A stretch of DNA of 64,000 nt from Rubripirellula sp. (GTDB taxonomy: Bacteria > Planctomycetota > Planctomycetia > Pirellulales > Pirellulaceae), in assembly GCA_965216875.1 (NCBI GenBank), contig OZ244207.1:3616001-3680000 (forward strand). The letters are read 5' to 3'. This document shows positions 42,001 through 48,000 of the stretch, piece by piece; within the stretch, counting starts at the first letter, position 1; the number at the start of each line of letters is the position of its first letter. A program made the position numbers.

Positions 42001-45000
42001 TTCACGCCGCAAAGGTGTTTCGTCAGTAAGCGATCAAACATCAGTCGTTCTGCCAACCCTCAAGCTGGTTGAAGTACTTGTCCAATCCAGTGCGGAACTC
42101 TTCGGGCAATGTCGCTCCGGCCGTTCCGGTCGACTGGCTGGATGCCGTCAAGTCTTCACGAACTTCCTTTTCATTCACTCCACTTCCGACCAACGCAAGT
42201 GCAGGTGTCTCGGTGTCGCCGCCACCGCCACCACCAGGACTTGCGCCACCACCGCCGCCACCGTTCGGGTTAAACCGCTTCGACTGCAGCAACAATTCGA
42301 TGATTTCAGTCTCCGCAGCAATCGCCGGTGCACCTGTCTCGGGACGTCGCAAAATGTCGACCGTCTCAAGCATGACATCTTCGACTTTCGACAGGAGCTT
42401 GATTTCCTTCGCGAATTGAGCTTGCGCGTCGGGCAACTCCTTGATTCGCTCGACGACTTTCTCCATTCGCACGCGGAACTCTTCTTGAGTTCCCGATAAC
42501 TTCTCGCCTGTCATCGTGTGTTCGGTATCGGTGACGGCAGGACGAGCCTGTTCGGCGACGCGTGTCTGCTCACGCAATTTCACTTCGCCTTCTAAGAGTT
42601 GCAAAACTTCCAATACGATCGATGGTGGCAAACTGCCAGCCGATTTGCAGCCCGGTCACAAACCGCCCTTGGTCACTTCAACCAGGTCTTCGGCCCAGCG
42701 ATCAAAGTTCTCACTCCAGTATTCCGCCTGTGAGATCGAAAGTCCGTTTTCTTTCTTCAAGTCATCACTCAGATGCCGAAGTCCCGCGGTCACGTCCTGA
42801 TCACGCATGTCATCCAACACCACTTTGAACCGCATGAAACGGCTGCGTTCGAAATAAGCAGCCATGTCGTCCATGATGTGCGAGGCTTCCTGGCTCGAAA
42901 CCGATTCGGTTTCAGACAGTTTCGCAAAGGTGTCTGCATTGCCTTCTTTCTGGCGGTTTGAGACCCCGAAAGTATCCGCGACCATCGAGCCGAGTTTCAT
43001 CGCAACTTGTTGCTGCTTTCGCGACGACGCCTTCAACCGCTTGACCAGAGTGCTGCCTTCAAGATTGGCAAGCACGTTGTTGAGTTCATCAACGATCTTT
43101 TCGAACTCGGCAAGCAGATCCTCTTGTTGCTCGACCGCTTCATCCACTTGTTCGTTCGCGGGTGGCGGTGGCTGATCACTCTTTTGGCCGCCGCCGGCAA
43201 GCATTGTTGTTGGCAACGTCAATCGTGGTTTCCCACCACTATCTTCTTGCGGTTCGCTTGGTTCCTTCGACTCAGGCTGATGATGCGACGATTCAACATC
43301 GCTGATTGTCGGAACCTTTGTGGGATCTTTTGGCTCGCCTGGCTTTTTGGGGTCAGCCGCGCCCGATTGAGTCAATCGGTTTTGCCCAGCCTTGGGAGCC
43401 TGGTTCTGTTGGCTCGGTGGACTTGACGGTTTCGCTGGAGCCTTTGATGCCTGCTTGAGCAGGTCGGCAACCGAAGGCATCCGGTTACCGCTAATGTCTT
43501 TAAGAACCTGCATCATCTCGGCCCACTTGTCCAAGTGCCCAACGCCGATCTCTGGATTCCGCATCGCCTCTTTGAGCAACATCTCGCCGAACGAGGTCAG
43601 GTTGGTGAGCCGACGCCCGTTGGCTCGTTCACCCTGGGCCTGCGAAGCGAGCAGGCGTCGGTTCTCGGGCCGATCGAGTTGCTCGGGCGACATGTCACGC
43701 AGTTGCTTGTTCGTTTCGTAAAGCTGCATCTCGCGATCGCGAACGTCCAATGACATGCGATGCCAGCGACTCAGCTCGGCCGTCACCCAAATCGCATGCT
43801 GTTCGGCGTTCAGTACGTTAAAGACGCAGGTCGGCGAATAGATGCGAGGTCGATCGGGAAAGTAGTCTTCGACAAACACGCGTACGGCCAACGGCTGTGG
43901 CGCGATCTCATTCTCTTTGGCCGAAAAGGTCGCGGCCAACTCGAGAAACTCGGCTTCGTAATCGCCGGCGCCGATCACCTTTTCGCCTTTGGCAAAACCT
44001 TGGACGGTTTCATCAAGTCCAACCCACTGAATCCCGACTCGTTTGACGCCAAAATCGTCGCGAGCTCGCACCTTGAACGTCAACACTTCGGTGTCGAGCA
44101 GAACCTTGCGGCGTGGCAGGTTTTCGCAAATCAACGTCGGCATTTCGTCATCGACGCCTTCGATGGTCAGTTCGAAGGGGCGTTTGCCGCTGAGCCCAAA
44201 CTGGTCCTCCCACTGCATCTCGATCTTTTCCGTTCCGTCAATCTTGACTGGTGGTGTCGAGAACTCGGAATCGGTTGTTGATTGAGGCTTGCCATTGACG
44301 AGCGCTGCCGATAGCTCTCGTGATGCGGTGGCCGTCAACGTGGTCTCGCTTCCTTTGACGACCGTCAAGGTCGCACCACGAATACTCTTTTCCAGCAACT
44401 TTTTGCGGCCGAGGTAATCGGGCAACTTCACTGCAGCCGACAAACCACTCAATTCGGGTCGCAACATCGGTTCGATTTTGGTTTCACCGGCAAAGTCACC
44501 GACGCGAACATTCAAATTGCTGTCGGCGATTTGCCCTGGAAGTTCAAAGTGATACTCGCTGTCGTCAGCAAGATCGGCCTCTTCGGCGGTGTGTCCTGCG
44601 AGGTTGACCGACGCCTTGGATGGTTTCCATTGCGTCGACTCTTGCAACTTGATCGCAACGTCGAACGATTCACCATGGGGCACGACGATCCGCTCGGGAA
44701 GTGGTTCGATCGCCGCGAACGTATAGCGAGGCGTCTCGCCCCAAGGCTTCAGGAAGCGTGCCCACGCGTTCTTTGCCGCAGCGGCGGTGAACAACAAGAG
44801 GGCAACGGCAACAAACCCGAGGAAGCCAACCGCGTACCCGCGTTGGATGTGTTGTGGATTGGGGATCGCGCCTCGCAGGTCTTGCTGCTCGACATTCTCG
44901 GCCACTTGCTTGATGGCCGCTTCGACCAGCTCGGGCGAGCGTGATTGCTCGGACGAATCTTCCGAGAGCTCGATCACACCAAGCAGTTGATCGCCAGCAC

Positions 45001-48000
45001 TTGGATGGGTTTGCGAAAGTAGACGCGCCAATTGGTCCATTCGCCTGCGTCGCCAGACCCAGCGTTCCAAACCGACCGGCACAAGCGCACACGCTGCGAT
45101 CGCGCCAAAGAAGATCACCGTACGAATGATCGCTGGCGTGTCAAAGAGACGATCAAGCGTATAGGTCAGCAGAAAGCCGACCAGAATGCCAATGACCGCG
45201 GCGGCGAACGCCTCGAACATCTTCAACCGCCAAACCCGCCCACGGAAATCGAGCAGTTTCGCTTTGAGCGATTCGGGGATCTGAAGTTGGTTATTCGACG
45301 TGACCTGCATGGGACCTTTTCTCCCAAGTGAAATAACTTGTGTTGTCATCTGGCGTTGCCGCCAGAATCGACCCGGTCTTTCGATGTGTGTTTATTGTTT
45401 CCTGTTCATCCAGCCACTGCTAGACACATTGTCTTGGCTGGGCAGAAATACCTGCCAGCCAACCGTCATTTGCTGATCCTAGATCAGTCCTACCGCTTTT
45501 CTCCAAACCCAAAAGATTCCCAAAAGCAGGACAATCAGGGCGAACGCCAGCGGGTGACTCCAAAGTTGCAAGCGTCGCACCGATGGCGGTGGCATCGGCA
45601 AATCAGCCAGCGCCGCGATCACTTGGTCGATCTCCTCGGGTCGAACCGACTGGCCCCGTGAAACCATCGACAACTCCTGCAGCACTTCGGGCCGAGCCGG
45701 CTTGCCGACTTGTTCAATCTGTTGGCCTTGCACGAAAAAGTTCGCCTGCAGCGTCGCGCCCGTTTGTCGGCAAGCTAACGTTACGTCATGTTTGCCTGGT
45801 TCCGTTGGCACGTAACGACCTTCGAAAACACCCCAGCGATCGCCTTCGGCAGTCAAACGAATCGTGTCCGAATTGCCCGAAGGCGCGATGATTCGGGCCG
45901 TCACATCACCCTTGGCCAGCGGTTCGCCGCCGTTGTCCATCACATGAGCATGGAAGGTAAGCGTGCGTCGCATTTCGGGTTGATCGGGCGTGTAGTAAAG
46001 ACGCATCGTTTCGCCCTTGGCCATGTTGCGTTGGTACGCCATCCAGCGCACCACCTGACCCCAAAAGCGATAGTGGTACTTGTCTTCGACACCTTTACGC
46101 CACCGCCATGCACCGTCGGTTCCCATGAACAGAACCTTGCCCGCGCCGTAAGTGCGCGTCGCCAGCAACGGCAAGCGACCGTACTTGTTTGACATCTCGC
46201 CATGAACCGCAAGGACTTCGCAACCGGCTTTGGCGCGAATCACTGGAGCGTACCACTGGAATCCAGGCAGGTCTTCCCAAACTTGAACGTTCTCCTGGCT
46301 GGTATCGGCAAGCTTGGTCAACAAACTGCTTCGCCCGCGTTCAGTCAATTCAAAGTGGCCGGGTGTTCGCGATCCCCAACCGCCAAGTTGGGCCTCGTCC
46401 AAGATCACGGGGCACAACTCCTTCAAACTCGTCTCCAACAAGCTGAATTGTCGCCCCTGCCAACCAGGCATGAAGACAAGACCGCTGGCCTGATGTTCGA
46501 CCAAGCCTTTGACCAGATCGCATTGCTCTTCGGTCAATTGGCCATCTTCAAGTCCAACGTCTCCGAGAAAGACAACGTCGTATTGCGAAAGATCTTCAAT
46601 CGCTTCAGGAAAGGCTTTGATGTAATCCTTTGATCCGCCACCCACCTTGTCCAATCCGGGATGAAACAGCAAGCAAGAGACATCGACACCGGGATCGCGC
46701 GACAACGCGTTTCGCAAATAGCGGTATTCCCACCGCGGGTACGACTCGACCAGTAGGACTTTCAGTTTCTCTTCGCGAATCGCAATTGGCGCCGATTGTT
46801 CGTTGTTGCCGGGGATCGTTTCGTCGGCATGTTTGGGGATCGTCAAAGTGACCGAGTAGTCGCCCGTGACTTGTGGCTTCCAATTGATTGCGTCGGTCGT
46901 GCGACCCATCGGGGCAATGCGTACATCTTTGGTAAGCGTTTCGCCATCGGAGGTTTTCAGAGACACCGTCGTTAGGAACTCTCGTGGCAGTGAGCTGTCG
47001 ACGGTAAATGGAATCCGCACCACCTTGCCCGCCGTTCCAAAGGTTGGCAGGTCAACACTGACCAATTCCAAATCGGGCAATCGTGTGGCGCTGCCCGAGG
47101 CCACGGTGAAAACGGGAACGCCTTTGGTGCGCAGTCGCGATGCCGCTTCCACGGGCGGTTTGCCTTGGTTCCAATCGCCATCGGAAATCAATACGATCCC
47201 CAGCAGTTGGTTGACGCGTGCCGCCACTTCCAACAAGGGTTCGTTCAAATCCGTGCCAATCGAATTCGCTTCACCCACCGACTCGGGCGAAGCAATCGGT
47301 TCGACAACCACGTTAAGTTTTTCATCGAGTGCGTTCCACGCGTCGGCTTTGGTCAGCGAATCGATCGCCTCGGCTCGGGTGATCGCGCCGACTTCGGCGT
47401 CGCCAGTGACAACATCACGTGTCTGCATGCTTGCCGATTGGTCCCACAAGACGGCAATGGTTGGCTTTGCGTCGGGACGGTATTCTTCGACCCACTCGGG
47501 TTGGTTCAACAGGATCGCCACCATGGCAACGATCACAACGCGAAGCGTTTCCAAGCCGGCCACCGACCGCGAATAGCCGCTTCGCTGCCACGCGAAAACA
47601 CCAAGCGCCGCGGTTGCCAACACAACCACAACCGCTGCGACGACCGAAAAGGTTGTCCCCATGAAGGTGAGCTGCTGAACGGAGTTCATGATGCTGCTCC
47701 TTCATTGGCGAACATTGGCCCCGATCCCTTCGTCACCTTGCGTGGGATGCACAACGCTGCCTCGAGCACGAGTGCAACGAGCATGATGACTAAGAAGAGC
47801 CGCCAGATCTCCTGGATCAACGACGTGCCACTTCCTGCGCTGTCGTCGACACGGTCAAAGTCGAGCTGTTCGAATAGCCCCGCCACACGATCTTGAGAAA
47901 CGACCGCTGCGACGTCTTCGTCAGCGCTGCGATTGATGGCGAGCAATCGATCCTCTTCGCGGTAGATCCCAGCGTGCGACGCGAACTCACTTGACAACGC

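Follow-up and report, generated by a model that had tools for sequence, protein, structure and literature searches.

A putative selenocysteine codon in a DUF4175-like membrane protein encoded in a Bat-like MoxR operon of Rubripirellula

Bacteria decode selenocysteine (Sec) with a complex of SelB, GTP and Sec-tRNASec, which binds an mRNA hairpin and brings Sec to the UGA. Metal-centre maturation is a function of MoxR-VWA systems, CoxD/E and NorQ/D among them. DUF4175 (PF13779), which we take to be the same family as NCBIfam TIGR02302, comprises large membrane proteins with N-terminal transmembrane (TM) helices and long low-complexity regions. Bat (Bacteroides aerotolerance) systems are proposed to supply periplasmic reducing power or to serve envelope integrity, neither role being proven (PMC5700661). 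Among the 119 families that a 2026 review of selenoproteins (PMC13188914) lists, the one described here, from a 64,000-nt stretch of a Rubripirellula sp. contig (the window), does not appear.

An in-frame TGA and the hairpin behind it

On the minus strand of the window, gene callers place an 884-aa and a 180-aa gene. The survey's finding had been that these (g02803 and g02802) are one gene with an in-frame TGA, and translation bore this out:

42041..45349, minus: one gene of 897 codons, the UGA read as Sec and 204 further codons (1102 sense codons), followed by a TGA stop
42656..42658, minus: putative Sec codon TGA, codon 898, next base C; TGA stands in the same aligned column in 38/90 loci
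42624..42641, minus: SECIS-like hairpin GG(C)UGGCA-GUU-UGCCACC, stem 42638-42634 with 42630-42626, loop 42633-42631

The single internal TGA sits in VTKGGL-U-PGCKSAGSLPPS, with the core motif GGL-U-PGC. Its number, 898, presumes the first ATG at 45349; the 884-aa product of the gene caller implies a start 13 codons later, so residue numbering is uncertain by 13. The TGA was the same in contigs of three runs from two studies, and a second strain differed at 3 of 301 nt, each time at a third codon position. Cys-form orthologues have unbroken frames of ~1090-1140 aa.

To place the codon in its family, we compared 90 homologous loci, drawn from 85 genomes within the family of the source genome, a homologue being present in 87 of 201 family genomes. 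TGA filled the aligned column in 38 loci and Cys in 34, the remaining 18 having some other residue; these counts overstate the support because the genomes are related and not independent. Sec or Cys thus occupies one column in 72 loci, well beyond the three orthologues on which the claim of a real Sec codon with a SECIS hairpin had stood. An extra TGA lies 5-6 codons upstream in 14 loci, namely 11 of the 38 TGA loci, which would carry two Sec each, and three of the 18 other-residue loci, which have only that one; a sister clade shows the two-Sec arrangement, 5-6 codons apart, as GPG-U-PxGG-x-U-PG. Every internal stop in the 104 match rows was TGA, and neither TAA nor TAG occurred in any of them. 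The TAA earlier reported within the match of one relative, which had raised the possibility of two separate genes in some lineages, was not reproduced. On a tree of 80 rows, at least eight well-supported switches among Sec, Cys and other states were needed.

The hairpin TGGCA-GTT-TGCCA was located at 42638-42626. Its first base lies 17 nt past the final base of the TGA (counted from the T, the previously given 20 nt), and its loop begins 22 nt past the TGA. In the same-genus orthologue (L018) it indeed has the compensatory form CGGCA-GTT-TGCCG. Across the TGA loci the loop starts at 22 nt in 25 and at 19 nt in 13. The hairpin is embedded in codons of A-G-S-L-P-P, and part of its sequence is forced by coding, since G-S-L-P-P is conserved in the Cys forms as well. 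Its codon choice nonetheless separates the forms: the Ser codon is AGT in 38/38 TGA loci versus 10/34 Cys loci, and the Leu codon is TTG in 37/38 versus 16/34. A contiguous stem of at least 5 bp was present in 30/38 TGA loci, 1/34 Cys loci and 0/15 other forms; outside the TGA forms, neither the hairpin nor its codon choice is retained. Among 34 distinct sequences, 87.8% of cells were paired, compared with 29-59% in slid controls, and the covariation score of 0.181 (0.057 in shuffles) was reached by 0 of 500 shuffles. The closing pair, at wobble sites, was CG in 16 of these sequences, UA in 10, GC in three, AU in two and UG in one, and in one locus (L064) a GGC>GAC change is offset by CCN>TCG, with the protein altered. 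The element is small (5 bp core, 3-nt loop); its folding alone is no better than that of shuffled sequence (z = +0.85), and an Rfam search of the hairpin returned no matching family.

The genome has the full Sec machinery, with scores of 507 bits for selA, 343 for selB, 249 for selD and 71.5 for tRNA-Sec. SelB was found in 36/38 TGA-form genomes versus 13/47 non-TGA genomes, and the two TGA-form genomes lacking a SelB match are MAGs of 87% and 84% completeness. The Sec reading proposed by the survey is thereby also backed by the TGA-tied covarying hairpin, by SelB co-occurrence and by this machinery. Together, these comparative data argue strongly that the TGA at 42658-42656 is very probably decoded as selenocysteine within one gene; SelB-GTP-Sec-tRNASec would bind the hairpin and deliver Sec to the UGA.

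Two other readings of the TGA have little left to stand on. It might be a true stop, ending an 897-aa protein, with a ~190-aa protein initiated separately, for example from the TTG in the hairpin. Gene callers do divide the gene, the match is split into two frames in one same-genus draft (G137) and one MAG (G173), and the TTG, 24 nt downstream, is conserved in 37/38 TGA forms. That conservation is accounted for by the covarying hairpin, and the seven codons between TGA and hairpin are protein-constrained, with G, K and S invariant in 25/25 loci and change at third positions only. The break, moreover, is confined to the Cys column and to a second such column lying 5-6 codons upstream of it, the codon is always TGA and never TAA or TAG, and its near confinement to SelB-bearing genomes (36/38) also argues against a stop, which we regard as highly improbable. 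Slimmer still is the chance that a near-cognate tRNA, for Trp or Cys, reads the UGA, or that the codon reflects a recent inactivating mutation or sequencing error: the C that follows 37 of the 38 TGA codons is a leaky termination context but is dictated by a Pro or Arg codon, and the TGA is kept across dozens of genera with the state switches counted above, is tied to a structure-conserved hairpin and to SelB, and is identical in independent assemblies.

Protein architecture and operon

The 1102-residue product is predicted to combine three TM helices and three beta-sandwich domains with long helices, a low-complexity linker and a helical bundle:

44765..45226, minus: membrane anchor, three hydrophobic helices at residues ~42-66, 71-96 and 168-195 (hydropathy scan)
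43811..44692, minus: three tandem beta-sandwich (Ig/macroglobulin-like) domains, residues ~220-513 (AF2, pLDDT 91.4)
44033-44443, minus: sub-threshold DUF4175 match (PF13779, 26.4 bits; second figure 23.6 bits)
42278..43132, minus: C-terminal all-helical bundle with the Sec loop, residues 740-1024 (AF2, mean pLDDT 77.5)
42644..42673, minus: flexible Gly/Pro-rich loop with U898 and C901 (U-P-G-C), residues 893-902 (AlphaFold2)

The scan confirmed the N-terminal hydrophobic helices noted earlier, the second and third being joined by an Arg-rich loop, and the positive-inside rule applied to it predicts an N-in, C-out topology. In Foldseek the beta-sandwich part matched tandem Ig/macroglobulin domains at E ~1e-9; for the C-terminal domain, fold matches were to generic helical bundles only. 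The Sec loop was modelled at pLDDT <50 (fragment residues 154-163) between helices 129-150 and 170-195, and homologues carry 0 to 4 Cys in it. Beyond the bundle come a conserved, disordered segment rich in Gly and a terminal helix.

The protein had been assigned to no known family, and a whole-protein search of Pfam and NCBIfam at E<=0.01 indeed gave no match. Residues 280-460, however, matched DUF4175 at E 2.3e-6, and 10 of 75 homologous C-terminal domains matched PF13779, so that this assignment stands for the whole-protein search only. Further likenesses are the three N-terminal TM helices, the long outside part, low-complexity stretches of Gln/Pro/Gly, two parts of the profile that are matched weakly, one homologue named 'DUF4175 family protein' by UniRef, and an Atlas neighbour cluster with PF13779 in 22% of its members. 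Unlike DUF4175 proteins, the whole protein is without a match and the score lies under the Pfam cut-off (26.4 versus 27.3 bits). It is a divergent DUF4175-like protein within a Bat-like MoxR operon, its family not wholly unknown. No report of Sec in DUF4175 proteins was found in the literature searched for both terms together.

The gene lies in a same-strand row, with the upstream genes annotated by Pfam/NCBIfam:

45479..53756, minus: upstream operon genes together
52632-53756, minus: MoxR AAA+
50658-52628, minus: exported EF-hand/PD40 protein
49698-50609, minus: DUF58 protein
47686-49701, minus: BatA_N double-TM protein
45479-47689, minus: VWA/GATase1-like/filamin protein
36339..42056, minus: downstream genes together
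41058-42056, minus: exported protein without family, signal-peptide-like N-terminus
40273-41061, minus: exported protein without family, signal-peptide-like N-terminus
39230-40354, minus: exported protein without family, signal-peptide-like N-terminus
36339-39386, minus: exported protein of 1015 aa, signal-peptide-like N-terminus, AhpC/TSA-Redoxin-thioredoxin domain at its C-terminal end (Pfam), CxxC at 908-911

The neighbours, described earlier as genes of unknown function, are not all so: MoxR, DUF58, BatA_N, VWA/GATase1-like and thioredoxin-fold proteins were identified among them. A thioredoxin-fold protein gene lies downstream in 7/7 other genomes examined (8/8 counting this one), where the upstream ORF series on the same strand is similar by size, the Pfam scan in those genomes covering the thioredoxin-fold proteins only. 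The Sec gene belongs to a conserved Bat-like envelope operon (MoxR-DUF58-BatA-VWA), the last gene of which encodes an exported thioredoxin-fold protein.

Possible redox or metal chemistry at the Sec loop

With a topology taken from hydropathy alone, the large C-terminal part would face the periplasm. We put at about even chances a model in which the selenol there is a redox-active centre kept reduced by the operon's thioredoxin-fold protein. Sec would cycle between selenol and selenenylsulfide, pairing with Cys901 or, in lone-Sec forms, with another chain or a partner; the exported TlpA/AhpC-like protein encoded at the operon's end would reduce it, and the centre would serve the envelope complex in reductive protection or redox sensing. 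The motifs U-x-x-C, C-x2-C-x2-C and U-x5-U across homologues support such chemistry, as do the exported thioredoxin-fold protein of the operon in 8/8 genomes and the periplasmic reducing power proposed, though unproven, for Bat systems (PMC5700661). Against a necessary redox role, the loop is without Cys or Sec in 15/90 loci and in many database homologues (GGASPGG), some homologue loops are acidic, many Sec forms carry a lone Sec without a Cys close to it, and one genome (L118) retains the thioredoxin-fold gene although its loop is without Cys.

The main rival is metal binding: a genuine selenoprotein whose Sec/Cys-rich loop would bind a soft metal ion, for example Cu, Zn, Ni or Fe, or an Fe-S cluster, and would not be a redox catalyst. 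Loop variants with 3-4 Cys (CGACPGC, ACKGCCPGC, ACCGACPGC) look like a site for a metal or cluster, Asp/Glu runs (ligands of hard cations) stand in for Cys in some homologues, and the loop is flexible and rich in Gly and Pro. Binding would also fit a MoxR/VWA role in loading or maturing metal centres, and UxxU and CU metal-binding selenoproteins are described (PMC13188914). Against it, Pfam and fold searches yielded no match to a metal-binding domain or fold, many Sec forms offer just one Sec, with neither Cys nor another ligand close by, a thioredoxin-fold partner is conserved within the operon, and among the redox motifs of selenoproteins U-x-x-C occurs most often (Table 1, PMC13188914). We consider metal binding possible, with the odds against it. 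Overall, Sec on a loop predicted to face outward suggests that a widespread cell-envelope system carries out redox or metal chemistry.

Comparison with described systems

Like bacterial SECIS genes of the E. coli fdhF type and the two AhpC/TSA-family selenoprotein genes of this genome, the gene has an in-frame TGA aligned with the Cys of homologues, a G/U-containing loop ~20 nt past the UGA (beginning at 22 nt here and at 20 and 21 nt in the two Prx-family genes) and selA, selB, selD and tRNA-Sec in the genome. Unlike in the fdhF type, the hairpin is very small, 5-7 bp with the 3-nt loop GUU. The protein also departs from these in being neither a thioredoxin-fold protein nor another known oxidoreductase: it is membrane-anchored, 1100 aa long, and bears its Sec in a helical bundle, on a loop modelled as disordered.

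Among UxxC/CxxU selenoproteins (thioredoxin-like, TlpA-like and DsbA-like proteins, and GrdB with UxxCxxC; Table 1, PMC13188914), U-P-G-C has its counterpart, and with C-x2-C-x2-C in Cys homologues, Sec takes one Cys of a di- or tri-Cys motif. Here, in contrast, the motif stands in a low-order loop without a surrounding thioredoxin fold, and many members have a lone Sec or neither Cys nor Sec. The sister clade with two Sec recalls multi-Sec selenoproteins (UxxU metal-binding protein, TsoB with UxxxxU; Table 1, PMC13188914), from which it differs in being a separate protein family and in that both UGA share ~50 nt of mRNA with the GUU hairpin, which follows the second at 19 nt and the first at 34-40 nt.

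The operon resembles Bat/cmd-type operons in its same-strand row of MoxR AAA_3, DUF58 and BatA_N double-TM genes. It differs from them in that BatC-, BatD- and BatE-type proteins were not recognised in it, in the EF-hand/PD40 protein that stands between MoxR and DUF58 in this genome, and in its additions: a DUF4175-like selenoprotein, three exported proteins of unknown function and a 1000-aa thioredoxin-fold protein.

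The reading frame and its internal TGA

Translation of the minus strand from 45349 to 42041 gave a single frame, in which the internal TGA at 42658-42656 is preceded by 897 codons and followed by 204 more before a TGA stop. This bears out the survey's finding of one frame with an internal TGA. In this translation the site reads VTKGGL-U-PGCKSAGSLPPS, with selenocysteine (Sec) as residue 898 and a cysteine as residue 901. Contigs from three runs in two studies carry the identical TGA, and a second strain shows three differences in 301 nt, two before the TGA and one after it, all of which fall by arithmetic on third codon positions. 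Downstream of the TGA, the seven codons up to the Ser codon of the hairpin read P/R-G-x-K-S-x-G in the 25 homologous loci with 22 nt between the TGA and the hairpin loop. The Gly, Lys and Ser between these two points are invariant and their codons vary at the third position only, a pattern that a restart of translation from the TTG within the hairpin would not lead one to expect.

The genome carries selD (249 bits), selA (507 bits), selB (343 bits) and tRNA-Sec (71.5 bits), all above curated cut-offs, and the three protein genes lie side by side on one strand (G000:C1:325282-330621; L001, L121 and L123). The open frame around selD spans 749 aa, far more than the 311 positions of the model, so SelD may be fused to another domain.

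To follow the site across related bacteria, we ran residues 700-1102 as the query against 201 genomes from this organism's taxonomic family, 87 of which contained homologues. The 104 match rows contained no internal stop, one TGA or two TGA, and never TAA or TAG; the TAA previously reported for one relative was not reproduced. We translated 90 loci from 85 genomes in frame and aligned them, leaving out genomes G026 and G183. At the column of U898, 38 of the 90 loci have TGA, 34 have Cys and 18 have Ser, Ala, Thr, Gly, Lys, Pro, Asp, Glu or a gap, and the flanks DRWAE..LV and SLPPS are conserved in the aligned loci. In L052, from a 63%-complete metagenome-assembled genome (MAG; G173:C41), the match is broken and further TGA lie in the out-of-frame part, and this locus was excluded from later counts where stated. 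The match in L047, from a same-genus draft (G137:C16:111994-113198), shifts frame about 37 codons past the TGA. The breaks in both loci are either assembly errors or real frameshifts. Beyond the family, a phylum-wide sample gave matches in 16 of 401 genomes, with TGA forms in two further families, and over 1800 proteins in the databases matched the C-terminal domain. Those that are named come from Rubripirellula, Rhodopirellula, Planctomicrobium, Rubinisphaera and other Planctomycetota and are called 'hypothetical protein', apart from one homologue that UniRef labels 'DUF4175 family protein'.

SelB was found in 123 of the 201 family genomes. Of the 38 genomes that carry a TGA form, 36 have it, the exceptions being two MAGs that are 87% and 84% complete; of the 47 with non-TGA forms only, 13 have it, although related genomes are not independent and such counts of loci or genomes overstate their statistical weight. 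A FastTree phylogeny of 80 rows, built without the loop columns, nine partial rows and L052, needs 17 state changes, at least eight of them forced by well-supported branches. This indicates that Sec, Cys and non-Cys forms have been interchanged repeatedly.

The hairpin downstream of the TGA

The hairpin that the survey had described is present in the sequence and can be extended on both sides:

42638-42626, minus strand: hairpin core, TGGCA-GTT-TGCCA
42641-42624, minus strand: extended hairpin, GG(C)TGGCA-GTT-TGCCACC, with a C-C mismatch or a bulged C

The hairpin overlies the codons for G-S-L-P-P. Although this protein segment is conserved in all forms, its codons are fixed in the TGA forms only.

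Codon choice and stem at the hairpin in TGA and Cys forms
Feature: TGA forms; Cys forms
Ser codon AGT: 38/38; 10/34
Leu codon TTG: 37/38; 16/34
Gly codon GGC: 31/38; 4/34
Contiguous stem of at least 5 bp around a 3-nt loop: 30/38; 1/34

The same stem test was passed by 0 of 15 loci of other forms and by all three loci that carry only an upstream TGA. The 41 hairpins from TGA-bearing loci comprise 34 distinct sequences, and 87.8% of their cells were paired, compared with 29-59% when the partner strand was slid. The pair closing the core, which joins two wobble positions, is CG in 16 sequences, UA in 10, GC in 3, AU in 2, UG in 1 and another combination in 2, and the covariation score of 0.181 (0.057 in shuffles) was reached by none of 500 shuffles. 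In L064, an upstream-TGA-only locus, a GGC to GAC change is offset by a CCN to TCG change at the cost of replacing Pro with Ser. In single-sequence folding the hairpin alone was no more stable than shuffled sequence (z = +0.85), and an Rfam scan of 261 nt around the TGA returned no SECIS family and one chance-level lncRNA row. The support for the hairpin is thus comparative, not thermodynamic.

Bacterial SECIS elements are modelled as a hairpin just downstream of the UGA, with G/U in an apical loop about 16-37 nt from the UGA. Here the GUU loop starts 22 nt after the TGA in 25 loci and 19 nt after it in 13, with the stem kept in TGA forms only, in agreement with this model. The same genome holds two AhpC/TSA-family genes with an in-frame TGA, L135 (G000:C1:6090313-6090681, minus strand; FTGG-U-TKEC) and L136 (G000:C1:1772056-1772424, plus strand; AHW-U-PHC), which probably encode ordinary Prx/TlpA-like selenoproteins. 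Their hairpins of 6-7 bp place the loop 21 and 20 nt downstream, so the geometry of the studied hairpin fits what the SelB of this organism must already read. Searching the genome with the PF07593 (VCBS/UnbV) profile yielded 16 matches, whose matched domains are all free of stops, and did not locate the Sec codon that the survey ascribes to a VCBS selenoprotein.

All lines of evidence on Sec decoding agree in direction, and we consider it highly likely that the TGA at 42658-42656 is decoded as Sec. The Sec codon, the hairpin and the one-gene architecture, together with the conserved operon partner described below, are regarded as shown.

A sister clade of homologues has an additional TGA 5-6 codons upstream, in the motif GPG-U-PxGG-x-U-PG. 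Two TGA occur in 11 loci (L055, L056, L058, L061-L063, L065-L067, L069 and L070) and the upstream TGA only in three (L053, L060 and L064); Cys versions of the upstream site also exist, for example GPGCPGGTUPGG and GPGCPGDTCPGS. The GUU hairpin of this clade lies 19 nt past the second UGA and 34-40 nt past the first. Both UGAs might be decoded from one short mRNA segment in either of two ways: a single hairpin could act at the two distances, or tandem hairpins could be used, with the second UGA within the loop of the first. We found no description of a SECIS arrangement serving two UGAs this close. For roughly half of the 14 sister-clade loci (for example L055), RNAfold predicted an extra hairpin that encloses the second UGA in its 4-nt loop; as it was clear in only that share, we do not claim it as a second SECIS.

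The operon and the Sec/Cys loop

By Pfam and NCBIfam matches, the studied gene is the sixth in a row of same-strand genes:

Position 1: MoxR AAA+ ATPase
Position 2, 50658-52628, minus strand: exported EF-hand/PD40 protein
Position 3: DUF58 protein
Position 4: BatA_N double-TM protein
Position 5: VWA/GATase1-like/filamin protein
Position 6, 45349-42041, minus strand: the studied gene
After it: three proteins with signal-peptide-like N-termini and without a family
End of the row, 36339-39386, minus strand: protein of 1015 aa; signal-peptide-like N-terminus, AhpC/TSA-Redoxin-thioredoxin domain with CxxC at the C-terminus

Bat-type operons encode the VWA-domain proteins BatA and BatB, plus BatC (TPR), BatD and BatE (SH3). 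MoxR AAA+, DUF58 and BatA_N proteins are encoded together here (PF07726, 208 bits; PF01882, 157 bits; PF07584, 63.7 bits; TIGR02226, 77 bits), a 736-aa protein gave a weak VWA signal below the cut-off (17.2 bits), and Pfam detected no TPR (BatC) or SH3 (BatE) protein in the row. We read the row as an extended Bat/cmd-type operon. The EF-hand/PD40 protein combines a hydrophobic N-terminus with several EF-hand motifs and with propeller repeats of the PD40/WD40-like type; among the other genomes compared, judged by ORF size only, a similar ORF at its position was clear only in the same-genus genome G016. The stop TGA of the studied gene (42041-42043) shares one base with an ATG of the next ORF (42039-42041; TGATG), an overlap that suggests translational coupling with the downstream exported protein.

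We examined the same row in seven other genomes (L114-L120), which between them represent Sec, Cys, two-Sec and no-Cys forms. All seven encode, farther downstream in the row, a protein of some 1000 aa that carries this thioredoxin-fold domain, making eight of eight with the window. Genome G128 has two such genes in tandem, and the first 800 residues of the protein at the end of the operon match no family.

We infer a redox role, for which we see even chances: the loop would face the periplasm, U898 and C901 would form a redox-active centre, and the thioredoxin-fold protein of the operon would keep this centre reduced. The loop motif is U-x-x-C here and C-x2-C-x2-C, C-x3-C or U-x5-U in homologues. 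The main rival explanation is that the loop binds metal, which we regard as possible but somewhat doubtful. In some homologues the loop holds three or four Cys, in others runs of Asp/Glu take their place, and MoxR/VWA systems elsewhere mature metal centres. Any essential catalytic role has to contend with loops that lack both Cys and Sec, found in 15 of the 90 loci and in many database homologues (GGASPGG), and with the thioredoxin-fold gene being retained even in such cases; both weigh against it.

A broader proposal, which we think unlikely to hold as a whole, is that the loop is the missing chemical centre of Bat/MoxR-DUF58-VWA-DUF4175 systems and that both UGAs of the sister clade encode Sec. 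Such a centre would act in the periplasm, as a selenol/thiol redox (or metal-handling) site of a stalk protein anchored in the membrane, with an exported thioredoxin-fold protein dedicated to serving it. The function of Bat/cmd-type operons is unsettled: there are two proposals, periplasmic reducing power and envelope integrity (PMC5700661), and the Bat paper cited there dates the question back to 1999. For its part, the probable selenoprotein family ties selenium/thiol chemistry and a conserved thioredoxin-fold partner to Bat/MoxR-VWA-DUF4175 envelope operons, and the proposal of periplasmic reducing power becomes directly testable. If the loop is indeed the chemical centre, it would offer a first molecular handle on the role of these widespread 'aerotolerance/envelope-integrity' operons.

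Protein architecture and known families

Hydropathy analysis placed three transmembrane helices at about residues 42-66, 71-96 and 168-195; the segment that precedes helix 1 and the one that links helices 2 and 3 are rich in Arg/Lys. By the positive-inside rule, the last 900 residues would lie outside the cytoplasm, and the selenoprotein probably faces the periplasm. AlphaFold2 modelled residues 194-640 as three beta-sandwich domains followed by long helices (pLDDT 91.4) and residues 740-1102 as an all-helical bundle (pLDDT 77.5), with U898 in a loop of pLDDT below 50 flanked by two confident helices. Behind the bundle, at residues ~1025-1080 (window ~42100-42280, minus strand), lies a Gly-rich stretch, NP-x-GGGGGG-xx-PGGGGGG, which is disordered in the model (pLDDT ~37) and most of whose Gly residues show little or no variation within the family. 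A fold search with the N-terminal part returned only generic tandem Ig/macroglobulin-like domains. A Foldseek comparison of the C-terminal domain with the PDB yielded nothing at E<=0.001, and VIA-align wide found only generic 4-helix bundles, whose Z scores of up to 14.3 fall in a range that is uninformative for helical bundles. As these searches of the C-terminal domain were generic or empty, no function can be inferred from them.

The whole protein matched no Pfam family and, with Cys for Sec, no model of NCBIfam release 20.0 at E<=0.01, as the survey had stated; any selenoprotein-family models that the release contains, of the kind named in Table 1 of PMC13188914 (for example GOS_B, NF041374, and GOS_C, NF045500), likewise gave no match. 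The survey's label 'unknown family' goes too far, as residues 280-460 resemble DUF4175 (PF13779; 26.4 bits, E 2.3e-6). As the gathering cut-off of 27.3 was not reached, we call the protein DUF4175-like and not a member. A DUF4175 match at E<=0.1 was seen for 10 of 75 homologous C-terminal domains, and a natural Cys homologue used as query in the protein atlas led to unnamed planctomycete clusters and one cluster with DUF4175 in 22% of its members. Weak DUF4175 matches to the same part of the profile occur at L107, L109 and L110 (G000:C1:4247901-4248377, 6103652-6104146 and 8083843-8084280), in open frames of 1137, 1274 and 1355 aa, which may encode paralogues that belong to other envelope clusters.

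A 2026 review (PMC13188914) tabulates 119 families and subfamilies of prokaryotic selenoproteins in its Table 1. Among these 119 we found no DUF4175-like, Bat-operon or large membrane protein, the BSepDB family list being outside this comparison, and neither the text of the review nor the deep-Sep paper mentions Planctomyc-, DUF4175, aerotolerance or von Willebrand. Our literature search returned nothing joining a selenoprotein with DUF4175, and nothing relevant for a selenoprotein with MoxR and BatA. Supplementary table S9 of a 2016 planctomycete genome paper (PMC4807772) lists a 'hypothetical' Sec candidate from planctomycete P1, for which Rhodopirellula sallentina has a Cys homologue; this candidate may or may not be of the same family. 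Overall, this is very probably a real, new selenoprotein family that uses the ordinary bacterial decoding mechanism. In one planctomycete family its Sec form is frequent, being present in 38 of the 85 genomes examined that have a homologue, and it occurs in other families of the phylum. Gene callers miss the selenoprotein by splitting it, and the annotation is here corrected from two genes to one.

The probable family is of an unusual type, being large and membrane-anchored. Thioredoxin-family Pfam models gave no match to the protein. Unlike the thioredoxin-fold UxxC selenoproteins, it has an all-helical domain in the AlphaFold2 model, with the Sec motif in a disordered loop. DUF4175 proteins have two or three N-terminal transmembrane helices and a long low-complexity extracytoplasmic region (TIGR02302 description). 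The studied protein resembles them in its three N-terminal helices predicted from hydropathy and in its Pro/Gln/Ser-rich and Gly-rich stretches, which are disordered in the model.
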